Assembly (NCBI GenBank): GCA_000990945.1
Contig: LBQR01000025.1
Span: forward strand, 1-47,877
Origin: Candidatus Moranbacteria bacterium GW2011_GWF2_35_54
Lineage (GTDB): Bacteria > Patescibacteriota > Minisyncoccia > Moranbacterales > UBA9337
Reading direction: 5' to 3'
DNA: 47,877 nt
Numbering within the stretch: the first letter of the stretch is position 1; each line of letters begins with the position of its first letter. The notes under the pieces were generated by a model. The model worked only from the letters and a program-made list of their open reading frames with translations. It did not search any database and had not been told where the DNA came from. A program made the translations under genes and the position numbers. Below, piece after piece: positions 3,916-41,906 of the stretch.

Positions 3916-3989
3916 AAATGTCTTTACTTGCTAGTTAATTCTAATATTTTAAGCTTAAGCTATAATTAAATTTTTTACAAATAAGCGCT

Positions 3990-4060
3990 AGGTTTTAGTT
4001 TATAGTTTATAGTTTGTAGGTTTTAGTTTATAGTTTGTAGGTTTTAGATTATAGATTTTA
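3990..4060. repeat. Degenerate tandem repeat (about 21-nt unit GGTTTTAGTTTATAGTTTGTA)
   Basis: Three units read directly from the sequence. The word GTTTGTAG is the reverse complement of CTACAAAC, which is repeated inside priA (5043-5075). Confidence 0.8.
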
Positions 4061-4090
4061 ATTGCAAAAAGTAGCGGATAAGCATAGTTT

Positions 4091-6715: not shown

Positions 6716-7082
6716 ATTGTTCTAGATGTTGTAAATGTTTTAAATGTTATAATTGCTTGTCATTGCGAATAAAATTTGTACTCAAAATTTACGTGACAAT
6801 CTCCTTAAAGTATTGGAAAAACTATCATTATTGTCAGTTTTACTTTTAAAATAAAATATCTTGTATGTCATTTCGACTAAATAAATTTTTGTACTCGGAA
6901 ATTTATGCATGGAAAAATCTAACAAATATTTAAAAAATACCGTTCTAATTCATTTCGCATTTTACTTCCACGCTTTGAAATGTAGAATTAAAATGCAGAA
7001 AGTAATTTTGTAATAAAATTTAAGAACAATCTTCTGAATTAAAATTTTTTATAAAAAATAATCCTGTTAAATTCATACATAT

Positions 7083-7144
7083 GCGGAAAATAACAGCATT
7101 TAAAAAATTAAAAATCCCACCGGCAAACGCGTGCTAGCGGGATT
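7083..7144. repeat. Direct repeat copy 1 (decayed hairpin/terminator module)
   Basis: GCGGAAAATAACAGCATTTAAAAAATTAAAAATCCCACCGGCAAACGCGTGCTAGCGGGATT is near-identical to 8164-8225. Weaker similarity extends upstream (about 6989 vs 8104). Confidence 0.8.
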
Positions 7145-7168
7145 ATTTTATAAGAAAAACATAAGACG

Positions 7169-7924
7169 TCAACGACCTTCCGCGTTAATGATAAGTGCTA
7201 TCTCATCAACTATTTGCAACACTCCCTGATTTGCAGAAGGCTCACTAGCAAGAAGGATTTCTCTATTTCTCTCTATCTGAGATTGAAAAGGAGAAATATC
7301 CACCCGATTATCGAGAATCCTCAAAGCCAGATCATTTTCAACTACTCTGGCACATACTCGGAAAGGACTACATAGCAAAGTCGCCAACTCTAAAAATTCC
7401 ATTTTCGCGCAATCTACGCCCAGCAGATTAGTGATTCTCGAAAAAGCTGCTGTCTCGCAATAATCAAGTCTCTTTAGCGATACCTTTCCTTTTCCTGATA
7501 AAATATCATCTGCTTCTAGTTCAAAAATCACCAAAGCTCTTTCCATGTTTTCTTTAACCATAATCTCTCGGGCGTCTTTGAGCATATCTCGAAATTTAGC
7601 ATCAAGAAAAACATCGCCTTTGAAAACAAGTGTCCAGGCTTCCTCCAATAGCCCTCCCTCCTTAACAAGATTATTGAAACTATCAAACAACTTTCTGCTT
7701 AATAGTTTTAATTGAGCGATGTTATCTTTCCTTTTTGTTATTTCCTCAAAATAATTAAACAGAGCAAAAACCAGTGTAAGAACAACACTAATTACTACAG
7801 CAGGAATAAGAATTTCTTTAATTATTATACCCAAAGATTCTCCAATTTTTACAAAAGAAACTATGGCAACTGCTACTACCAACGCTACCGCTCCAACTAA
7901 GATTTTAGAAATGTTCTTTTTCAT
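7169..7924 (-). CDS. Hypothetical membrane-anchored protein (251 aa)
   Basis: I prefer the start MKKNISKILVGAVALVV at 7924 because GGAG lies 6 nt upstream; the ORF-track start at 8029 has no SD. Two N-terminal TM segments. Flanked by about 62-bp direct repeats. Confidence 0.55.
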   Translation of the reverse strand: MKKNISKILVGAVALVVAVAIVSFVKIGESLGIIIKEILIPAVVISVVLTLVFALFNYFEEITKRKDNIAQLKLLSRKLFDSFNNLVKEGGLLEEAWTLVFKGDVFLDAKFRDMLKDAREIMVKENMERALVIFELEADDILSGKGKVSLKRLDYCETAAFSRITNLLGVDCAKMEFLELATLLCSPFRVCARVVENDLALRILDNRVDISPFQSQIERNREILLASEPSANQGVLQIVDEIALIINAEGR

Positions 7925-8163
7925 GACATTCTCCTTTTTTGCAGAAAAATTTATTTTCTGTTTTTTTAAACTGCTTTCCATTCTGATATGCACACTAATT
8001 CTATTGTAATCCTTATAACATAAATCCAATCAAAGCGTCAAACAAAAAACTTTTCCAATCAATCCGAATTAATCATTTACTACCGTACACTAGAGTACGG
8101 TAGTAAAATGCAAAAAGTGATTTTATAAAAAACAATACAACAATGCTGTTATTTTCCGCATAC

Positions 8164-8225
8164 GCGGAAAATAACAGGATTTAAAAAATTAAAAATCCCG
8201 CTAGCAAACGCGTGCTAGCGGGATT
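8164..8225. repeat. Direct repeat copy 2 (intact bidirectional terminator hairpin TCCCGCTAGCA/TGCTAGCGGGA)
   Basis: Matches 7083-7144. Contains an 11-bp perfect stem (8196-8206 / 8213-8223) flanked by A and T runs. Preceded by a 14-bp hairpin CTGTTATTTTCCGC/GCGGAAAATAACAG. Confidence 0.8.
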
Positions 8226-8582
8226 TATTTTTGAGAGAATTGTCGACGCAAGTTAAGATCATTTCTCTGACCTTGTTGGTTTTTAAAATCATCATCCGTA
8301 TACTAGAAAAATATTTTCTGTAATATTTTCTTATCAAGGGATATGCTGGTCCCTATCAACAGAAGCTTCCTTTAAAAACTCAACCTCTCCAACACTTGCA
8401 TGCATCTTTGTGATGTTTCGGCATGATGCACAATGCCTATCTCCGCCAAACGGAGAACATTATCATCATATAATCATAGCATCCTCCTTGCGGTTAATTT
8501 TTCACTTTCTCCACCACGGAAAAAGTTTCAGATCAATTAATCGGCATCACCTCCTTCGACATTAAATTCATTTATTTTTCTA

Positions 8583-15117: not shown

Positions 15118-15306
15118 TAAAAACTCCTCACTAAGCTGGCAGTATTTTATCTGAAACTTTCTCCACAAAATGGAGAGAGCTTGCCCCGCCTCGGCGGGGG
15201 TTATTTTATTCACTACACTAAATTATTTAGCGCGCCGCACAAAATATTTTTGCGGAGAGTGTTTTTGAAATAAAATACTTTTTACCAGCTTAATGAGGAC
15301 TTTTCT
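15118..15306. repeat. MITE-like element with about 45-bp imperfect terminal inverted repeats
   Basis: Left arm AAACTCCTCACTAAGCTGGCAGTATTTTATCTGAAAC (15121-15157) is the reverse complement of GTTTTTGAAATAAAATACTTTTTACCAGCTTAATGAGGACTTTT (15261-15304). Interior has GC hairpins (GCCCCGCC-TC-GGCGGGG). No ORF. Confidence 0.6.
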
Positions 15307-15344
15307 TAAATTTAATTGGAACTTTATTCTAAAAATCTCCTTTC

Positions 15345-15394
15345 TAAAAAAGAAACTTTATAGAATGGGCAAGCGTTTAAACACACGCTTGCCC
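15345..15394 (-). terminator. Terminator of orphan gene A
   Basis: 10-bp perfect stem GGGCAAGCGT/ACGCTTGCCC (15367-15376 / 15385-15394), then a T-rich tract on the minus strand. Confidence 0.65.
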
Positions 15395-15402
15395 AGTTGA
15401 AC

Positions 15403-15996
15403 TTATAGATAGGTACACATAGAAGCACCTGGCCCCTCGGCGTCTCCGAGAAGATCTTCAAGTCGCAACTCTCTTACGGCATCGAAGATGGTCCTTTCGG
15501 CAATTTCGCCATTGGACCAAATGGCGCGATTTTCATCGCCGTCTATCCAGCCAGCAATAAATGCCGGCTGTTTCATTTTTTCCAGCATCGCTTGGAAGCG
15601 TTGCCGGTTATCCTCTTCGGACACTCCGCTGAAATATTTCTCCAGTGAAAGTCCATTGATTGTATTCTCTGTTCGGGCTTTTTCGTAGCCCGAGAGAGAA
15701 GTGAAAGTAAATACGTTACCGCCCGAGGTAACGTATCGGATAAACGGCGTTACTCCTTCCCCCTTACGCTCCCCGCAAATTTGAGACCACCCCAGGTGGA
15801 GCAGTCCAAACTCCACACTCTCGTAAGCAGACTTTTTCACAAGAACGCTTTCCTTTCTCCACCATCCAGTGGAGTTTTTTGCCGCCTGAGTGAAATGGGC
15901 GGCAGCACGAATTTGGAGTCCCTGTGGCCTCCGCGCACTCCATCTGATTTTTACCTCTTGTTCTGGCCACTGGTCACCCATAATTTTTTCAAACAT
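15403..15996 (-). CDS. Orphan hypothetical protein A (197 aa), GC-rich
   Basis: I prefer the start MFEKIMGDQWPEQ at 15996, with GAGGAGG (16001-16007) 4 nt upstream. The ORF-track start at 16086 would run through the conserved non-coding leader. No family recognised. Confidence 0.6.
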   Translation of the reverse strand: MFEKIMGDQWPEQEVKIRWSARRPQGLQIRAAAHFTQAAKNSTGWWRKESVLVKKSAYESVEFGLLHLGWSQICGERKGEGVTPFIRYVTSGGNVFTFTSLSGYEKARTENTINGLSLEKYFSGVSEEDNRQRFQAMLEKMKQPAFIAGWIDGDENRAIWSNGEIAERTIFDAVRELRLEDLLGDAEGPGASMCTYL

Positions 15997-16039
15997 AACT
16001 CCTCCTCTCTGCCTCATGGACAGAAAAGTAAATTTTTTA

Positions 16040-16103
16040 CTCCACCAAAGACGAAATGTCTGCGTGGAGCGTTTATTTTGAATCACCCATGCAAGACAAT
16101 AAT
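16040..16103 (-). promoter_or_regulatory. Conserved structured 5' leader, copy A
   Basis: 47-nt block shared with 16774-16820 and 17219-17265, plus hairpin CTCCACGCAGAC/GTCTTTGGTGGAG (16040-16069) between the block and the SD. Confidence 0.5.
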
Positions 16104-16258
16104 ATATTTATTGTTTTGCAAAGAGTGATCCAAACAGAGAAACTATGAAATTTTTATCAAAGAACTTTTAACCCCGTCGAATTTATCCCATTGTATAACT
16201 GGGATGACTGGAGAACTACTATGAAACTTCGATTTCAAAAATCAAAATTTCAATAATA

Positions 16259-16296
16259 GTGGCGGAACTAATCTGAACTTTGATGAGTTCTGCCAC
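16259..16296 (-). terminator. Terminator of orphan gene B
   Basis: GTGGCAGAACT/AGTTCCGCCAC 11-bp stem with one mismatch. The loop contains AAAGTTC. Confidence 0.6.
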
Positions 16297-16314
16297 AGTG
16301 AACAAATGGATTTA

Positions 16315-16725
16315 TTAAAAGTTCTTAGTGATCTCGAATTTTGGAAAATTAGAAATCACTAAGGAAAAAAGGGCGGTGTTCTCTGCTGCCATGCAGCAGA
16401 CATTGTCGCTCTCTCGCCATGTTTTTTTTCCAACCAAAGATAACTCATCTCTGGTTGTTACCACTCTCGTATCCCAGTAACCCTGGGTTATGGGATGTCT
16501 GTCTGAACAGACGTGACTAGTAGACTTTCCGTCTAACAGAAAGCCCACCTCTATTACCAGACCGTTTCGCAAAACAGCTTTTTTGGACTCACAGTCAAAA
16601 CTGACCGGAGTCAACTTGTTTCTGGTGTTTTGCCATGATCCAGGATCGAACCATGACTCCTCGTAAAGCTCAATCTCTTTAGATTGAGTATTAATATTTG
16701 CAACAACTCCATAACCTGACGACAT
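16315..16725 (-). CDS. Orphan hypothetical protein B (136 aa), GC-rich
   Basis: GGGAGG (16731-16736) 5 nt before the ATG. No family recognised. Several Cys and Trp residues. Confidence 0.6.
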   Translation of the reverse strand: MSSGYGVVANINTQSKEIELYEESWFDPGSWQNTRNKLTPVSFDCESKKAVLRNGLVIEVGFLLDGKSTSHVCSDRHPITQGYWDTRVVTTRDELSLVGKKTWRESDNVCCMAAENTALFSLVISNFPKFEITKNF

Positions 16726-16753
16726 AATACCCTCCCATTTATTTTGATTTCTT

Positions 16754-16820
16754 GCTCCATCACAAATGATATATCTATGTGGAGCGTTTGATTTGAATCA
16801 CTCCCGTAAAACAACGATAC
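16754..16820 (-). promoter_or_regulatory. Conserved structured 5' leader, copy B
   Basis: Block 16774-16820 plus hairpin GCTCCA(T)CA/TGTGGAGC (16754-16785). Confidence 0.5.
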
Positions 16821-16918
16821 ATTTATTAATTCAAAAAATAAGAAATTACAAAATTTTTATCAAAGAACTTTTACCACTATGAAACTTCAATTTTAAAAAT
16901 CAAAATTTCAATAATAGT

Positions 16919-16951
16919 GGCGAGATTCATTAGAACTTTATAAATCTCGCC
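16919..16951 (-). terminator. Terminator of orphan gene C
   Basis: GGCGAGATT/AATCTCGCC 9-bp stem. The loop contains AAAGTTC. Confidence 0.6.
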
Positions 16952-16959
16952 GGGTGAAC

Positions 16960-17175
16960 TTATCTCCGCCTTAACTTCTCAATGTAAGCAAAGATGATAG
17001 TTATCGGTCCAAACATCGAACCGATTATTCCTCTGAAAAACATAGAAGAAAAAAATGCGATGGCATTGGAATATTCCAATGCGCCACTATTTATTTTTGC
17101 TACCATGTCATACATGGCAGCAGAAATTCCCATAACTGCCCAAATAGCAGCCAGAACGACCAAAAAATCTTGCAT
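16960..17175 (-). CDS. Orphan small membrane protein C (71 aa, two TM segments)
   Basis: I prefer the start MQDFLVVLAAIWAV at 17175, with GGAGG (17181-17185) 5 nt upstream. Hydrophobic throughout. Confidence 0.5.
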   Translation of the reverse strand: MQDFLVVLAAIWAVMGISAAMYDMVAKINSGALEYSNAIAFFSSMFFRGIIGSMFGPITIIFAYIEKLRRR

Positions 17176-17201
17176 GGCAACCTCCATCTTTAGAATGTTT
17201 A

Positions 17202-17265
17202 CTTCACACAAACAAAATTGTCTGCGTGAAGCGTTTATTTTGAATTGCCCATGTGAAACGATAAT
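17202..17265 (-). promoter_or_regulatory. Conserved structured 5' leader, copy C
   Basis: Block 17219-17265 plus 12-bp hairpin CTTCACGCAGAC/GTTTGTGTGAAG (17202-17231). Confidence 0.5.
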
Positions 17266-17578
17266 TTTTTGTTGAAATTACTCATCTCGCATAAAGGCAA
17301 TCCAAAATATTTGGAGAAACTATGAAATTTTTATCAAAGAACTTTGATATCCCTCCGCCTTGCTCAAGATAACATCTCTCTGTTGTCTTAATATCCTGAA
17401 TCAAGTTCAGGATGACAAGAAATTTTATCAAAGAGATTTTTGCATCCGAATAGGTGTTCAGTCTATTAGGTGCAACTGATCTCTTTCCGAAAAAAGGATT
17501 TAAACCCCCTCTCAGTCTCCCCCTTGATTACAAGAGGGAGAGGTTATTTTAATCAGGTGATTGTGATAGTAAAACATC

Positions 17579-17746
17579 TTACTCAATACTTAGAAGTGAT
17601 TCCGAAAGGATATATCGTTCATATATCGACTTTCCCTGTCGCATCCAATCTGATTGAACGATTTTAGACATATAATTCAGATTCCTATCTTCTAGCTTTA
17701 CTCTCTCCATGCGACCAATGCTATAGTTCGCAAAAGTAAACTCCAT
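17579..17746 (-). CDS. Possible small ORF (55 aa)
   Basis: Hand-translated as MEFTFANYSIGRMERVKLEDRNLNYMSKIVQSDWMRQGKSIYERYILSESLLSIE. Below the ORF-track size cutoff. No clear SD. A perfect 14-bp palindrome lies about 50 nt upstream. Confidence 0.2.
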   Translation of the reverse strand: MEFTFANYSIGRMERVKLEDRNLNYMSKIVQSDWMRQGKSIYERYILSESLLSIE

Positions 17747-17794
17747 GAATCTGTTTTACAAAGTCTTAGTTTTAAATGTTCTAGCTAAGATTTT

Positions 17795-17808
17795 ATTGTC
17801 TAGACAAT
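17795..17808. promoter_or_regulatory. Perfect 14-bp palindrome ATTGTCTAGACAAT (candidate operator)
   Basis: Read directly from the sequence. Lies in the divergent region between the small minus-strand ORF and the TrmB-like gene. Confidence 0.3.
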
Positions 17809-17947
17809 ATTTATCTTAACAACATAGTATAGCATGTCTTGATAGATTTGTCAATAGTTTAGTAACAACTTAAGCTTAATCTAGTATATTTTTATATATT
17901 TTAAGCATTTTTTCCTTATTTTATAACTTATTTTTGTCATATTTTTA

Positions 17948-17976
17948 TTGACAAATTGATAATATTTTGCTATAAT
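17948..17976 (+). promoter_or_regulatory. Consensus sigma70-type promoter of the TrmB-like gene
   Basis: TTGACA (17948-17953), a 17-nt spacer, then TATAAT (17971-17976), about 120 nt upstream of the ATG at 18099. Confidence 0.65.
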
Positions 17977-26003: not shown

Positions 26004-27584
26004 ATGAACCGTTTAAAAAATATTTTCGACGATAAATTCGTCAAAATCGATCTTAATACTTGTAATAATTATAGTTATTGGAGCTTTTTTAAGACTCTAC
26101 GATTTTAATGATCTTTTGCGCTTTAATAATGATCAGGTCCGAGATGCTCAAATCATCGACGCCATGCACTCTGGCGAAAATTTCCCGCTTTTTGGACCTA
26201 AAGCGGGAGGGACTAAATTTAATCTGGGTGGAGCTTTTTATTATTTAGAATATCTATCCGGCGCTATTTTCGGATTTTCTCCAGCAGGAATTGCTTTTTT
26301 TATCCCCCTTCTATCAATAGCTTCAATTTATTTATTTTATTTATTATTTAAAAAAATATTTTCTATCAATATCACTCTAGGCTTAACATTTTTGTATGCT
26401 ATTTCTTTTTATGCCATTAAATATTCTCATTTTGCTTGGAATCTTAGCTTTTTTGCTTCTTTTGAGCAGGATAGTTAGCCAATCCAATCAAGACGCGATA
26501 AATCGCGCCTCTACATATCTTGATTTTATTTTTCTGGGAATAATTATTGGCATTAGCGCCCAACTACATACCACTCTTTTAATTTTAATGCCCCTTATGA
26601 CCCTTTTAACTATTTTGTACGCTTATTTTAAAAAAATAAATATTAGCTTAAAAAATATTTTCTTGCTTATCTTTTTTTTCATCCTGATAAACATCCCTTT
26701 CGTTTATGGAAATTTTTTAGACCATGGCGAAAATCTTAGGGAATTTTTAGCCGGCACTAGCACCAAAACTGGCGCTAGTCTATCAATTGTTAAAAACACG
26801 GCTGCAGATATTAAATTTTTCTTGCAAGGAAGTAGTTATTATCTAACGGGGATTGAGCCTCAAAAAAATTGGAGTAACGTCATAAAACTAATCAAATCTC
26901 ACAATTTAATTTTCCTTAATTATATTTTTTGGAGGAATTTACCTTCTCTTTTCTAAGAAAACACAAGCTAACCGCCGGACTATTGCCAATGATACAATTT
27001 TAATCTTAAGCACCTTCACCCTGCTAGCTTTTTTATTTTTTCTTCTTATCGGCAATGAATTAAATTTAAGATTTTTTATTATCCTTTCTTTTTTGCCCTA
27101 TTTATTTCTAGGGGCAATTAGTCAATACCTCTCTGAAAAAATAAATTCTCTTCAGATAAAGGCAATTCTTTTCCTTTCAGTGCTAGCTATCTTAATTTTT
27201 TCAAATTTAAATATGTTTACCAAAACTTATAACTTAAATAATTACCGCGCGCCCCAAAGCGCCTATGGCGGGATTAGCTTAGGAGAACTGAATGAATTGT
27301 GCCTAAAGATGGATAACGCGCTAAAATCAAAGCCTGGCGCTTCACAGACAGCCTTTATCGATTCATTTGAGTTTAAAAGATCGCTAACATACGTTTGCGC
27401 AAAAACGAACCTTGCATTGGAAGAATTCTCCAGCGGAGAACTCATTGGCGCTCAATTATTTTTCGTAATCGTAGAAAATGAAAACATAGAAAAAAATATT
27501 CAAAAATACACCAATAGTTTTAAACTTGAAAATTCTCAAAAAATAAAACGCTTTACGCTTTTAACTTTTAAATCTATTCAATAA
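26004..27584 (+). pseudogene. Third GT-C (ArnT/PMT_2-like) paralog broken by at least three frameshifts
   Basis: MNRLKNIFDDKFVK, then shifted SILILVIIIVIGAFLRLYDFNDLLRFNNDQ... (ORF 26116..26478), then 26396..26956, then FGGIYLLFSKK...27584. Two junctions are at homopolymers (A4 about 26045, T6 about 26925), so sequencing error is not excluded. Confidence 0.55.
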
Positions 27585-29752: not shown

Positions 29753-31821
29753 TTATTTCTTTGCATCTTTCATGGAGAGATTTATCCTGCCCATTTTATC
29801 AATTTCTTTAACTTTTACCATCACCATATCTCCTACTTTAACCACATCATCAACTTTATTGACACGTTGCTCTGATAGCTCTGAAATATGAATTAATCCA
29901 TCTTGACCTGGTAACAATTGAGCAAAAGCTCCAAAATCCATTATTTTAACTACTTTAGCATTAAAAATTTCTCCAGCCTTTACTTCTCGGGTAAGATTTT
30001 CCACCCATTCCCTAGCTTTATCGGCAGAAACTTGATCTGGAGAAGTGATGAAAACTAGTCCGCTGTCTTCTATGTCAATTTGCACTCCAGTTTCGTCAAT
30101 AATTTCATTGATAACTTTTCCACCGGGTCCGATTACTGAACGAATTTTATCTGGGTTGATTTGAAGGGTAATAATTCTCGGTGCGTAAGGAGACATTTCT
30201 TTTCTCGGTTCAGCTATTACCTTGAGCATTTCTCCCATTATAAACATCCGACTTTCTTTAGATTGAGTCAAAACATTTTTTAACATTTCAATTGTTACAC
30301 CATCTACTTTTACATCCATTTGTAACGCAGTTATGCCCTTTTCTGTTCCAGCTGCTTTAAAATCCATATCCCCGTAATGATCTTCCATTCCTTGAATATC
30401 ACTTAGAACTTTAAATTCATTATCATTTTTGCCCACAATTATTCCCATCGCAATTCCACTCACCGGTCTTTTTATCGGTACCCCAGCATCCATAAGAGAT
30501 AATGTTGAGATTCAAGCACTTCGGAAACCAAAAGCATCGTATAGGGAAATTCTTCTTTAGATGGAAGAACGGGAATTAAAGCTTTTTCAGCTAGCGCCCC
30601 ATGTCCAATTTCTCTTCGGCCCGGTCCGCGCATAAACCTAACTTCTCCCACAGAAAAAGGAGGGAAATTATAATGATGAATATATCTCTTTTTCATATCC
30701 ACCTCCATAGTATCAATTATTTGTTCGTCTCCTGGAGATCCTAAGGTTGTCACAGTCAAAGCTTGAGTTTCACCCCTAGTAAAAAGTCCAGTCCCATGAG
30801 TTCTTGGTAAAATCCCTGTTTGAATAGTAATTTTTCTAACTTCTTTAAGACCTCTACCGTCGGGGCGTTTATCGCTCTCGATAATATTTTTATGCACCAT
30901 TTCATCGCAAACTTCATCCAATATAAGATTGGCAATATCTTTTCTTTTATCAAAATCTTCGGGATGATTTTCTTTAATATATTCTAACACTTCATCTTTT
31001 ATTTCGCCCACGGCTTTTTCCATTTCCTTCTTTTCTTTTATGTACAGAGCTTGCTCAAGTTTTTCAGTTGCAAAAAGATCTTTAATCTTCTTTTCAAACT
31101 CGGCATCTCCCTGAAGAAGAGCTGGCTCGGATTTTTCTTTGCCCGACTCTTTTTGAATATCTTTTATAAATTTAGCTATTTTAGACAAAGCGTTTTGTCC
31201 GAATTCAAAAGCTTCTAGAATGTCTTCTTCTGGAATTTCCTTAGCGGCCGCCTCTATCATATTGGTCTTATCTTCAGTTCCAGCAATTACCAAATTTAAA
31301 TCCCCATCCTTAAGATCCCCATTAATTGGATTGAGCACTAACTCACCATTAATCTTTCCTACCTTGACTGCTCCAATTGGACCATTCCAAGGAACATTGG
31401 AAATAGAAAGCGCTGCTGAAGCTGCAATAATAGAAACTATATCCGGATCATTTTCCCCATCAATAGAGAGAACTGTTATTATAACTTGCACCTCATTTCT
31501 CATTCGACCATTAAATAAAGGCCTGATTGATCTATCAATCATTCTTCCTGTCAAAACAGCATCGTCAGAAGGACGTCCTTCTCTTTTAATAAATCGGGAT
31601 CCCTTTATTTTTCCCGCAGCATAATAGCGCTCTTCATAATCCACCATCAAAGGGAAATATCCCATATTGCTAGCTGCACCAGTTTTCATAACCGCTGTAG
31701 CCAGAACTACTGTGTCTCCATAGCTAACTTTTACAGCTCCGCTAGCTTGTTTAGCTAAAACTCCGGTTTCTATGCGAAGTTCTCGACCTCCAATTTGGAG
31801 AGTCCATTTTTTCTCTTCCAT
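29753..31821 (-). CDS. pnp: Polyribonucleotide nucleotidyltransferase (PNPase), split into two ORFs by a short deletion/frameshift
   Basis: 30472..31821 encodes RNase PH domain 1 and most of domain 2. 29753..30493 encodes [17 protein letters not shown]..., KH and S1 domains. At the junction the motif NGSSSMA.VCG expected between VLES and [10 protein letters not shown] is absent and the frame shifts. Confidence 0.9.
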
Positions 31822-33936: not shown

Positions 33937-33961
33937 ACTTTTTTATTTGTTTTTATTTTTA

Positions 33962-34130
33962 TGACTTACACATTTGAGCTACTGCAATCTTAGTTTATGA
34001 AAAATATTATTTTTTTGAACTGCCCGCTTCGCCATAGCTTTAGCGAGGCGAGCCGTGCTACTGCGAAAGGCGAGAAAAAATGATATTTTTCAGAAACGTA
34101 TTAAACAAAAATAATATTCAAATACGTAAA
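33962..34130. repeat. Long palindromic intergenic element, copy 2 (with an extra nested GC hairpin)
   Basis: Same sequence frame as 1998-2135, plus an inserted CGCTTCGCCATAGCTTTAGCGAGGCGAGCC segment. Both copies sit just upstream of a minus-strand gene start. Confidence 0.75.
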
Positions 34131-38893: not shown

Positions 38894-41800
38894 ATGATTA
38901 CTATAGTTACCGATAAGCAAAACAAAGAACAGGATACAAAAAAAGTTGACCTTATAAATAAAAAAATTTCCACGTTCAACCGTGAAGAAGAAGAGCAAAT
39001 AGCCGCTTCTTTAGCCAAAGATCTAAACTTATTATATGTTGACTTAAATATTTTTCCTTTAGACATAGAAGTTTTGAGGAATATATCTCAAGAGGATTCC
39101 ATTAATTTTAAAATTGGAGTAATTAAAAAAATTGGGAAAAAAAGCCAAATAGTAGTTTCTGATCCAACCAATGAAGCCACTTTAAACTATTTGAAATCAC
39201 TCAAGGAAGAGAAAGGATGGGAAATAATTGTTTGCGTAGTATCTCAATCATCCATGGATAGCCTTTGGAAAAAATATAGAGAAAACATCTTGATAGAAAA
39301 TCTTGATTTTTTCCTTATTTCACTTTCAGGGAAAGACCTGGATGAATTTGAGGAAAAATTTAAGGAATTGTTATCTCTGAAAGAACGAATGTCCGAAATG
39401 AATACCAGTGAAATATTATCTACAATATTTTCTGGGGCAATCAAAATGGGCGCCAGTGATATTCATTTTGAACCCCAAAAAACAAGCGTCCGGATGCGCT
39501 ACAGAATTGATGGAGTATTGCAAACCATAGGAGAATTTTTCTTACCCTCTTATAAGTCCATGCTTTCCAGAATAAAAATGATTGGAAAAATGAAACTAAA
39601 TTTAAAAGATATCTCTCAGGATGGACATTTTTCAATTGATATTACAGCCACCGAAGGAAATGAACGAGTTGATATTCGTGCAAGCATTATACCAGGGAAA
39701 TATGGAGAAAGTGTTGTGCTCAGGCTTCTTAACCAATCATCTATTAATGTAGACATAGAAAATTTAGGTTTAAAGGGTCTGTCTAGCGAACAAGTAGCTC
39801 TCCAATTATCCAAACCCAATGGAATGATTTTAATAACTGGACCAACTGGTAGTGGAAAAACCACTACACTGTATTCCTTTTTGCGAAAGTTAAATACCCC
39901 TAATATAAAGATTATAACCATAGAAGATCCTATTGAATACGAAATAAAAGGAATTTCGCAAACACAAGTTCAAAATGACAGAGGTTTTACTTTTAGTGAT
40001 GGATTGCGCGCCATAGTAAGACAGGATCCTGATATCATTCTGGTGGGAGAAATACGAGATAGTGAAACAGCTGAGATTTCTGTCAATGCCGCTCTCACTG
40101 GACATTTGGTTTTCTCCACTATCCACACCAACAATGCCCCCGCTTCGGTTTCTCGATTATTAGAATTGGGCGTACGTCCTTCTTTAATTGCTTCTTCTGT
40201 AAATATTTTCATGGCACAACGTTTAGTGAGGCAACTATGTCCTAAATGTAAAGAAAAATACAAACCTGCCCTCGAGACAATCGATACGATTAAAAAATTA
40301 ATTTCTATCATATCACCAAAATCCAAGATAGAAATTCCCAAAAATATAGAATTTTTGTACAAACCCAAAGGTTGCCCTTACTGTAATAATCTTGGTTACA
40401 AGGGCAGGATAGGAATATTTGAAACTCTTACCATCAACGACAAAATGGAAAAATTAATTATTGAAATGGCCAGTGAAAGCGATCTAACTAAAGCAGCTCT
40501 TGAAGATGGAATGGTAACAATGACTCAAGACGGGATAATAAAAGTTCTTGAGGGAATAACCTCTATGGATGAAGTTTGGAGAGTTACTGGGCAAACAGCT
40601 TTCTTGCAAGACATCTATGAAGATTTGATGAATCAATCCCTATCTAGAAGCATCTTAATATCCGAAAAAAACCTAACCGAAGCCAGCATTTACGTAAAAG
40701 ACTTAACTAAATTCAATGACTGCATTAAGAAAACAAACTCTAATAATTTAATCGAAATAATAATTGCCTCCGCGCTTCTTTTGTCTACGGGAGATATTCA
40801 TATCGAACCGGAAACCAGCTCTATAAAAATAAGATTTAGAATTGACGGCATCTTGCAAGACATCGCTTCTATTCCGCTCAACGAATATCCTAATTTATTA
40901 GGAAAAATAAAACTACTTTCCGGATTAAAAACCGGCATTCGATCTGGAGTAGAGGACAGCCGCTTTAAAATATCTCTTGCTAAAAAATATGAAAACATCA
41001 CCGATACCGAGATTGATGTTCGTGTCTCTATTATCTTGGGAGGCTACGGAGAAACAGTTGTAATGCGTCTTTTGAATAAGTCCGCTACCGCATTGGAAAT
41101 AGATAAATTAGGAATTCGAAAAGAAAACTTAGATAAATTATTAGATCAAATTAAGCGGCCCTATGGAATCATACTAAATACCGGCCCTACCGGAAGTGGA
41201 AAATCAACTACATTATATAGCTTGCTAAAAGTTTTAAACAATCCTGAGGTTAAGATAATTACCGTTGAAGATCCAATAGAATATCAATTACCTGGTATTT
41301 TGCAAACTCAAGTTAATGAAATTGATGGCTATACTTTTTCCACCGCCCTACGAGCTCTTTTGCGTCAAAATCCTAATATTATAATGATTGGAGAAATTCG
41401 CGATAACGAAACAGCCAAAACAGCTATTCAAGCCTCTTTAACTGGACATCTCATTCTCTCCACGATACACACCAACGATGCTGCTTCTTCCGTGCATAGA
41501 TTGATCAATATGAATGTTGATTCAGACGAATTAGCTACCTCAGTCAATGCTTTCATGGCTCAACGTTATTCCTGAAAATACAAAAAATGAAATAGAAAAA
41601 ACTATTGCTTCAATTTCCCCTCAAGCAAAAGTAGTTATTTCTAAGATAGATAAAATATACCAACCAAAAGGTTGCGAAAAATGCAACTATCTCGGCTACA
41701 AGGGCCGATCCACTATCAGCGAGGTTCTTGTAATTGACAAAGAAATCGAGAAATTAATTTCTTTAAATGCTCTCTCTTCAGAAGTAAAAAGTAAAGCCAT

Positions 41801-41906
41801 AGAAAATGGCATGCTCACAATGTATCAAGATGGAGTACTGAAAGTTCTTGAAGGAGAAACAACCCTCGAAGAAGTAAATCGCGTAGCCAAAGACGAAGAA
41901 GATTAA
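38894..41906 (+). CDS. pilB: Type IV pilus/T2SS ATPase PilB (GspE family) with two complete ATPase modules fused in tandem; frameshift near the 3' end
   Basis: T2SSE_N-like N-terminal domain. Module 1: GPTGSGKTT, IITIEDPIEY, ILVGEIRD, TGHLVFSTIHTN, CPKC...CPYC. Module 2: GPTGSGKST, IITVEDPIEY, IMIGEIRD, TGHLILSTIHTN, then FMAQR followed by a frame break at about 41566-41575, then IPENTKNE...GCEKCNYLGYKGR (ORF 41547..41906). Confidence 0.85.

Follow-up and report, generated by a model that had tools for sequence, protein, structure and literature searches.

In the read-through mRNA of the IS10/Tn10 transposase and in hok-type toxin mRNAs, an upstream RNA segment masks the Shine-Dalgarno sequence (SD) and the start codon by folding back on them. 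RNase III sites lie between cistrons in the early region of phage T7 and in the lambda N leader, where cleavage frees an occluded start. The PeSL cassettes of T4-type phages carry repeated stem-loop modules between small orphan genes, and these modules are thought to aid modular shuffling. In integrons, attC sites follow a consensus of inverted core sites, RYYYAAC ... GTTRRRY, at the two ends of an imperfect palindrome some 57-141 nt long. Where such sites are clustered but an integrase is lacking, the array is termed CALIN (PMC4889954). Here we describe a repeated hairpin, H1, and the leader that surrounds it in a chromosomal stretch of 47,877 nt (contig LBQR01000025.1; hereafter the window) from Candidatus Moranbacteria bacterium GW2011_GWF2_35_54, an uncultured groundwater bacterium of the candidate phyla radiation (CPR). 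The same DNA is also present as contig LBQA01000003.1 of assembly GCA_000990515.1. The repeats are on the minus strand, upstream of each of three small genes. With moderate confidence, we propose that H1 is one stem of a modular 5' leader that would mask the start site and is reused before unrelated cassette genes. The three genes, in the order of their transcription, are as follows:

16960-17175, minus strand: cassette gene C, 71 amino acids, hydrophobic, orphan, GC 38%; ATG 17175-17173
16315-16725, minus strand: cassette gene B, 136 amino acids, orphan, GC 42%; ATG 16725-16723
15403-15996, minus strand: cassette gene A, 197 amino acids, GC 49.5%; ATG 15996-15994

Structure of the leader

A sequence-only reading of the window had reported three copies of a 47-nt block, each followed by a complementary arm of its own, as a candidate cis-regulatory RNA. 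Its three hairpins were recovered at the same positions and with the same sequences on the minus (gene-sense) strand; copies A and C had been written in minus-strand and copy B in plus-strand orientation.

16039-16070, minus strand: H1 of copy A, -14.8 kcal/mol, z -3.7; arms CTCCACGCAGAC / GTCTTTGGTGGAG at 16069-16040
16754-16785, minus strand: H1 of copy B, -15.3 kcal/mol, z -5.4; arms at 16785-16754
17201-17232, minus strand: H1 of copy C, -19.6 kcal/mol, z -6.6; arms CTTCACGCAGAC / GTTTGTGTGAAG at 17231-17202

The block pattern occurs three times in the window against 0.04 occurrences expected, and a repeat search returned a family (D1) of 81 nt in three copies with 73-75% identity. Four extra leaders of the same type (L029_1, L029_3, L056_1 and L101_2) were obtained from three related metagenomic genomes, where the genes that follow them are in part unrelated to A, B and C; with the window copies (winA, winB and winC) they form the set of seven leaders analysed below. 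Exact scans with a 20-nt block pattern gave only chance single matches in a collection of genome contigs (18 loci) and in viral contigs (4 loci), and they missed the relatives because these have a 2-nt deletion within the block. A protein search with gene A gave two homologues, of which the 79%-identical one led to locus L029, and a scan with the better-conserved D8 box upstream of the block led to L056 and L069, the only true relatives among 62 metagenome-contig loci. Homologues of the neighbouring TrmB-family protein led to L094-L105, where the modules are kept only in L098-L101 (the L056 species), L102 (the L029 sample) and L103. In viral contigs, the D8 pattern and a structured-RNA pattern each gave 0 matches, and a degenerate block pattern gave 42 chance matches. 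Altogether, the leader and junction modules recur before different genes in L029, L056/L101 and L103; the motif fits no described family and was found in a narrow clade only, in four sequence-divergent genomes.

Folded alone, H1 is very stable in all seven copies (-14.6 to -19.6 kcal/mol, z -3.1 to -6.6 when compared with dinucleotide-shuffled sequences), with values of -14.6 to -17.3 kcal/mol in the four copies from relatives. The C-to-T change that had been pointed out in copy C is indeed matched by a G-to-A change in its partner. The relatives bear out the claim that compensatory change conserves the pairing, since double changes as well as G-U intermediates are found in their copies. Compared with copy A, position 3 shows C-G, U-A or U-G, and position 5 shows A-U, G-C or G-U, with A-C once. 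Across the 14 pairs of H1 in seven copies, 91.8% of cells are paired compared with 39-48% when the 3' partners are slid, and changes on both sides occur at 4 pairs compared with 0-1. The pairing is kept with these further homologues, but the covariation score of the hand-made alignment (n = 7) is matched by 8 of 500 shuffles, and taken alone the H1 covariation is suggestive, not decisive. Directly after H1 come UAAAAAAUUU, AAGAAAUC or UAAACAUUCU. As stated in the sequence-only reading, no U-run follows any of the hairpins, and H1 as an intrinsic terminator or attenuator was rejected for this reason. A region scan found no terminator-like sites on the minus strand.

The 47-nt block did not hold up as a unit. 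It combines the 3' strand of a long hairpin (SL1) with the 5' arm of H1 and a linker between them, and it belongs to a leader of about 165-200 nt with the minus-strand order D8 box, SL1, H1, H2 (lacking in some copies), SD and AUG. The SL1 and H2 elements in the window are the following:

16077-16134, minus strand: SL1 of copy A (stems P1 and P2); its 3' half is most of the 47-nt block
16792-16835, minus strand: SL1 remnant of copy B, stem P1 alone (9 pairs), P2 lost
17236-17309, minus strand: SL1 of copy C, the source of a spurious MIR1523 match
16004-16028, minus strand: H2 of copy A, immediately 5' of the SD; missing in copies B and C

The GGAGTG upstream of H1 in copy B, which had been offered as an alternative partner of the conserved arm, belongs to that copy's decayed SL1 stem, of which it is the 3' strand. 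On its 5' side, SL1 comes in two types that both pair despite the differing sequence: copy A and L101_2 have UUUGGAUCAC..., whereas L029, L056 and copy C have UUUGGAUUGCC.... H2 (helix 4) is present in five leader copies, with 100% of cells paired and 3 pairs changed on both sides. The C-type leaders also contain a mini-ORF (open reading frame) of four codons, AUG CGA GAU NNN UAA, in the 5' strand of SL1 (17293-17279, minus strand), and L029_1, L029_3 and L056_1 have it at the matching place with GAG, GUG, AUA or ACG as the fourth codon; as a general leader feature it was rejected, A-type leaders being without it. A leader peptide, MGNSK* or MGDSK*, starting from the AUG in CACAUGGGC was also rejected: it is present in three copies only, L029 and L056 are frame-shifted by the 2-nt deletion, and the AUG is missing from copy B.

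All leaders were folded from the D8 box to 12 nt beyond the ATG. In the minimum-free-energy structures from RNAfold, a long-range helix, P0, encloses SL1, H1 and H2 (the last lacking in winC) in six of the seven leaders, namely winA, winC, L029_1, L029_3, L056_1 and L101_2. Compared with shuffles, the leaders of winC (-59.9 kcal/mol, z -7.0) and winA (-58.3 kcal/mol, z -6.7) are strongly folded. From a plain MAFFT alignment of six leaders, RNAalifold recovers P0, P1/P2 and the outer part of H1, with 6 compensated pairs. A structural alignment of all seven leaders, made by hand and N-padded so that MAFFT preserved it, has 67 pairs. In this alignment, the paired fraction of the 437 cells is 88.1%, compared with 42-50% after sliding, and both-sided changes occur at 17 pairs against 1-5 when slid, a count that 0 of 500 shuffles reach. 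Most likely, H1 is a scaffold stem of this larger predicted fold and not the switch.

The strand asymmetry of the pairing bears on a DNA-level reading, according to which the block and D8 would bind RNA polymerase or a regulator (e.g. the divergent TrmB-family protein) and the hairpins would be incidental. Such a promoter or operator would fit the conservation of the 3' half of SL1 and of D8, which is far higher than that of their pairing partners, as well as the TTGATA and the small palindrome CAAAG-TT-CTTTG within D8. By eye, some copies have TTGGAT-N17-TATAAT-like hexamers in the interval from D8 to the block, with TATAAT in L029_3. However, the -10-like hexamers are mostly without the key A at position 2 and are not conserved between leader types, and a promoter scan inside the leaders gave a site in copy B only (TTGATA-N17-TATTTT, 9/12) and none in copies A and C. 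In addition, the 76 G-U cells, against 15 A-C cells, would be A-C on the other strand; the sense strand is 88% paired and the antisense strand 74%, an excess that argues against a double-stranded-DNA palindrome. Double compensatory changes are present in P1, P2, H1 and H2. We regard an operator or promoter as very unlikely.

At the gathering threshold, Rfam yields three tRNAs only in the whole window. At E-values up to 10, the matches between 15000 and 18100 are spurious only, the best being the plant miRNA MIR1523 with 28 bits against a gathering value of 96. The earlier suggestion of a cis-regulatory RNA is upheld in that a conserved sense-strand structure without an Rfam family lies between an upstream box and the SD, but the anatomy assigned to it was wrong.

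The D8 box and the start site

An anti-SD is built into the unit, as had been suggested, but it is located in D8 and not in the arm of H1. The D8 boxes and the strands that they are predicted to pair with are listed here:

16136-16168, minus strand: D8 of copy A (AAAGTTCTTTGATAAAAATTTCATAGTTTCTCT); its final 17 nt (16152-16136) form the predicted 5' strand of P0, anti-SD and anti-AUG
16839-16871, minus strand: D8 of copy B; the part opposite the ribosome-binding site (RBS) is degenerate (UUUUGUAAUUUCUUA)
17313-17345, minus strand: D8 of copy C, including the predicted 5' strand of P0
15989-16005, minus strand: predicted 3' strand of P0 in copy A, from the SD (GGAGG) through the spacer and ATG (15996-15994) to 5 nt more
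16718-16734, minus strand: predicted 3' strand of P0 in copy B, SD through ATG (16725-16723)
17168-17185, minus strand: predicted 3' strand of P0 in copy C, SD through ATG (17175-17173)

D8 is a 32-nt box (AAAGTTCTTTGATAAAAATTTCATAGTTTCTCC); two window copies have the same sequence, to which the third is 88% identical. In the predicted helix P0, its 3' half (...UUUCAUAGUUUCUCC) pairs with the SD, spacer and AUG, such that CAU of D8 faces AUG, CUCC faces GGAG, and the intervening bases face the spacer. Partition-function folds give probabilities of 0.58-1.0 for pairing of the SD with D8 and of 0.70-1.0 for pairing of the AUG with D8 in six of the seven leaders; P0 is strong in copy C and in the relatives. 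It comprises 17 pairs, of which 3 are changed on both sides and 7 on one side, with 80.7% paired and a nearly invariant 5' strand (n = 7-10), and it is retained in four of six whole-junction folds. P0 also forms in L029_2 and L103_2, where the interior of the leader is unrelated to the block. This suggests that P0 is the general feature, and that the block with H1 is one of several interiors. As a cis segment that is complementary to both the SD and the start codon and is predicted to pair with them, D8 qualifies as a start-site-sequestering element in these models.

We compared the complementarity of D8 to cassette and native start regions. With the start regions of 29 native genes of the window, the D8 17-mer gives -3.8 +/- 1.8 kcal/mol (best -7.6), compared with -7.2 to -22.2 kcal/mol for each D8 with its own cassette start region (10 that follow a D8 box). 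The consensus D8 17-mer pairs better with 9 of 10 cassette starts than with any native gene, and the energies at the own start are -22.2 kcal/mol for the own D8 against -16.3 for the consensus in L029_1, and -18.7 against -11.8 in L029_3. The complementarity of D8 is not a trivial outcome of GGAG plus AUG, and it is specific to cassette over native RBSs.

These results leave very little credence for the model of the sequence-only reading, in which the CUCC of the H1 arm would be a switchable anti-SD that toggles translation. The arm sequence, CUCC or CUUC, is complementary to GGAG and lies 17 nt (B and C) to about 35 nt (A) 5' of the SD. The interval of 17-33 nt that had been given for this distance agrees with the 17 nt in copies B and C, but the SD of copy A (GGAGG, 16005-16001) is 34-38 nt past H1 and, with the ATG of gene A at 15996, falls just outside it. 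On the other hand, the mutually exclusive helix between the H1 arm and the SD has a probability of 0.00 in all seven leaders, both with D8 and after its removal, and it would have to compete with the stability of H1 alone. The 5' arm has drifted to CUUC in four of the seven copies, with G-U or A-U in the partner position, which weakens pairing with GGAGG, and D8 is the better anti-SD, specific to cassette start regions.

In the mechanism that we propose, the 3' half of D8 would reach over some 130-170 nt to pair with SD, spacer and AUG as well as with the opening 3-6 nucleotides of the coding sequence, the three inner hairpins drawing the two strands of P0 together. Any transcript that contains D8 would then be closed for translation initiation by default. 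By inference, the element works as RNA, the transcript includes D8, P0 reduces translation, and some event opens the helix. Opening might come about by processing at the hairpins of the junction, through a protein or temperature, or through an internal start site whose transcripts omit D8. As variants, P0 could form on every transcript and be opened by processing, a protein or temperature; it could form on read-through RNA from upstream only, as in the fold-back inhibition of IS10; or the stems could be mainly processing or stability elements. Pairing of D8 in trans with the structured RNA upstream of the array was considered and rejected, the best duplex (-17.5 kcal/mol) being no better than with shuffled D8.

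Several points weigh against start-site masking by this leader. In copy B, D8 pairs with the SD at a probability of 0.2 and with the AUG at 0.06. The centroid structure of copy A lacks P0, and folding of its full junction displaces the helix. Of the three window copies, two have a poor P0, weak in A and decayed in B. Because the 5' strand of P0 is nearly invariant, the universal GGAG and AUG account for much of the complementarity. The comparison with native starts addresses this point, but some of those starts may be mis-called. The promoter scan found no convincing sigma-70 promoter 5' of D8, and P0 could not form in transcripts that began within the leader. The alignment is fitted by hand to the fold, which inflates the pair counts, and there are only seven D1-type leaders from four closely related, non-independent genomes, so that the counts support the fold and do not prove it. 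Finally, the wobble pairs (G-U or G-T) are equally compatible with sense-strand single-stranded DNA and with RNA.

Junctions, cassette genes and the upstream RNA

The leader is the last part of a junction module of 230-320 nt, with the order GTTCAC box, variable-stem hairpin, D7 hairpin, D8 and leader. In the window, the parts that precede D8 are the following:

16919-16959, minus strand: after gene C, GTTCAC box (16959-16954) and hairpin GGCGAGATT / AATCTCGCC, loop AAAGTTCTA
16261-16303, minus strand: after gene B, GTTCAC box and hairpin GGCAGAACT / AGTTCCGCC, loop AAAGTTCAG
15367-15402, minus strand: after gene A, the last cassette, GTTCAA box and hairpin GGGCAAGCG / CGCTTGCCC, then ATTCTATAAAGTTTCTTTTTT
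16874-16917, minus strand: D7 hairpin (family D7), junction C to B
16216-16259, minus strand: D7 hairpin (family D7), junction B to A

The box reads GTTCAC or GTTCAA, with TTCAC in junction 2-to-3 of L029. The post-ORF hairpin has 9-13 bp, and its stem is fully different between copies with the pairing kept; its loop contains AAGTTC, the exceptions being TAGTTC in junction 1-to-2 of L029 and the last gene of the window array, after which the motif is missing. Of the 19 pairs of the D7 hairpin, 4 are compensated. The junction from B to A carries a 45-nt insertion between D7 and D8 (16171-16215, minus strand) that forms a hairpin of its own (ATCCCA...TGGGAT) and is missing from all other junctions.

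Whole junctions fold as a row of sense-strand hairpins, and a stable hairpin precedes every D8. Such an arrangement would suit a processing or stability module, where one long RNA from the upstream promoter is cut at the junction hairpins into stable mRNAs and masking is secondary or relieved by cleavage, as in the lambda N leader and the T7 early region. The post-ORF hairpin, D7, P0 and SL1 would then serve as targets of a double-strand RNase or endonuclease and as stems that protect the ends. A consensus promoter (TTGACA-N17-TATACT) upstream of the array, with no convincing one inside, favors this view, as does the AAAGUUC motif shared by the hairpin loop and the start of D8. However, the post-ORF hairpins could equally terminate transcription, and processing alone leaves the exact match between D8 and the start regions unexplained. 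We consider a processing module unlikely as the explanation, and it is compatible with start-site masking.

The shared sequence stops at the ATG and restarts at the GTTCA box past the stop codon, and gene content varies between related genomes amid flanks that are syntenic on both sides. The cassette ORFs are of 71, 136 and 197 amino acids in the window, 241, 126 and 195 in L029, 239 plus a stub of 20 codons in L056/L101, and 138 and 276 in L103. The stub is the second cassette of the L056/L101 species (L101, 188-130, minus strand), which consists of a complete leader and a 20-codon ORF (MKKVYTFFDELEREKNVEVY*) and looks like a decayed or emptied cassette. The GC content at third codon positions (GC3) is 39-60% in cassette genes against 32-35% in native genes, and cassette ORFs reach a GC content of 56% against 34.6% for the genome; the junctions have 29-35% GC. 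The raised GC of the ORFs relative to the AT-rich junctions suggests that most cassette genes are compositionally foreign, having probably been acquired horizontally and kept in a native framework. Genes A, B and C gave zero matches in Pfam, PADLOC and PHROGs. For gene B, no homologues outside its own species were found among 5.8 billion proteins searched, and gene A had only 10 matches at E <= 0.001 among 1.84 billion cluster representatives. The AlphaFold2 model of gene A was unusable (pLDDT 39).

These features raise the question of recombination sites, with hairpins and GTTC boxes acting as folded single-stranded DNA in an attC-like manner and the start-site match as a by-product of the cassette boundary. 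Co-oriented orphan ORFs of high GC3 between AT-rich conserved repeats, the exchange of genes between syntenic flanks with boundaries at ATG and GTTCAC box, and a post-ORF hairpin with a conserved loop and a fully variable, compensated stem are all in its favor. Moreover, attC clusters without an integrase are common (PMC4889954). Against it, no tyrosine or serine recombinase domain was found among the long window ORFs that were scanned (the scan omitted ORFs 26116-26478 and 41547-41906, of about 120 amino acids, and shorter or overlapping ORFs), nor in the precomputed gene context of L023. A regular-expression search of both strands of 15300-17500 found no paired RYYYAAC/GTTRRRY within 45-150 nt. 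On each strand, this stretch has a single core-like motif of either kind, which does not exceed the background of 2.5 sites per 2.2 kb, and the GTTC boxes are direct, not inverted, repeats. The canonical attC reading was rejected, as inverted core-site pairs were not found in the junctions. The unit is also larger, with 230-320 nt and several separate hairpins compared with one palindrome of 57-141 nt, and homologous recombination between the long conserved junctions would explain the exchange without dedicated sites. Dedicated recombination sites seem to us distinctly unlikely.

As a tentative and somewhat doubtful extension, the repeats might be the junction modules of an undescribed integrase-free cassette platform in Moranbacteria-like CPR bacteria. 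Foreign ORFs would be held from ATG to stop between the masking leader and a trailer of GTTCAC box, hairpin and D7, downstream of an RNA of about 400 nt beside a TrmB gene, and the three GTTC boxes per junction would be sites of exchange or of transcript cutting.

This RNA heads the array:

17425-17854, minus strand: consensus promoter (17854-17826, TTGACA-N17-TATACT) and structured RNA, whose last helix ends in a D8-like UCUCUUUGAUAA

Gene finders call an ORF of 55 amino acids (17579-17746) in the roughly 400 nt past the promoter; it is probably non-coding, because the same stretch of L069 has in-frame stop codons. The RNA has a conserved fold of 76 predicted pairs, 24 of them with compensatory change across seven genomes, and no Rfam match was found for it. 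Outside the window, it is located at 1-350 in L029, 12240-12640 in L056 and, on the minus strand, 1815-2250 in L103, 600-1040 in L069, 1145-1545 in L094 and 995-1365 in L096. It always adjoins the divergent TrmB-family gene, upstream of foreign-looking genes, and it may be a long regulatory leader of the array or a separate RNA. Two divergent sigma-70 promoters, at 17934-17976 (plus strand) and 17854-17826 (minus strand), match the consensus at 12/12 and 11/12 positions, both with an extended -10 TG, and serve the TrmB-family gene and the structured RNA. A possible auto-operator, the palindrome TTGTCA-N10-TGACAA, overlaps the promoter of the TrmB-family gene. Relatives of the TrmB-family protein are labelled Candidatus Moranbacteria or Parcubacteria by their sources.

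The remaining window genes are housekeeping genes, including those for PriA, RtcB, glycosyltransferases, PNPase, NusA, trigger factor, ClpP, type IV pilus proteins, RuvB and a penicillin-binding protein. PNPase appears to be split over two overlapping minus-strand ORFs (29753-30493 and 30472-31821), with the RNase PH and PNPase domains on one and the KH and S1 domains on the other. The split may be genuine, or it may stem from a frameshift or a sequencing error. Other repeats were noticed in the window. The intergenic regions 1977-2115 and 33941-34110, 32 kb apart, have repeats of 84 and 48 nt in common (83-90% identity; families D3 and D13). An 81-nt repeat with 88% identity (family D4), which contains a G+C-rich hairpin CCCGCTAGCA...TGCTAGCGGG, flanks ORF 7169-8029 at 7078-7158 and 8159-8239. 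A short tandem array of 7-nt TAGTTTA-like units (family D5) lies at 3989-4065.

Comparison with known systems

If the fold works as predicted, the locus would add a structured leader without a family to the CPR, where hardly any cis-regulatory RNAs have been described. It would represent one portable translation module, closed by default, that can be reused on unrelated horizontally acquired genes. The locus may also show how bacteria with tiny genomes acquire and tame foreign genes, which bears on the question of cassette origin.

As in the fold-back of IS10/Tn10 and hok mRNAs, long-distance cis pairing is predicted here to close those transcripts that carry the upstream segment. Unlike in these systems, the module is repeated before unrelated cassette genes, encloses two or three conserved hairpins, and is not associated with a transposase, a toxin or an antisense RNA. 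Similarity in sequence was not found either. With RNA thermometers of the ROSE and fourU types and with riboswitch expression platforms, the leader shares a U/C-rich strand with G-U wobbles that pairs with GGAGG and AUG. In contrast to these, it has no evident aptamer or ligand and no Rfam match, and the pairing is long-range, not local.

The array resembles integron arrays and CALIN in its co-oriented, mostly orphan ORFs of foreign composition with conserved hairpin-forming repeats between them, in the strong promoter upstream, and in a gene content that is variable among relatives. It differs from them in that no integrase was found among the window ORFs scanned, in the lack of RYYYAAC/GTTRRRY inverted core sites, and in a multi-hairpin unit of 230-320 nt that includes the RBS up to the ATG. 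Regulatory modules with stem-loops, repeated between small orphan genes, are also characteristic of the PeSL cassettes, but here they are found on a bacterial chromosome, with different sequences and no demonstrated promoter. The long imperfect stems between cistrons recall the RNase III sites of T7 and lambda N; organism and sequences are unrelated, however, and the stems here are predicted, with cleavage hypothetical. The mechanism class is well known, and the unusual part is the reuse of one putative masking leader on foreign cassettes in an integrase-free array.

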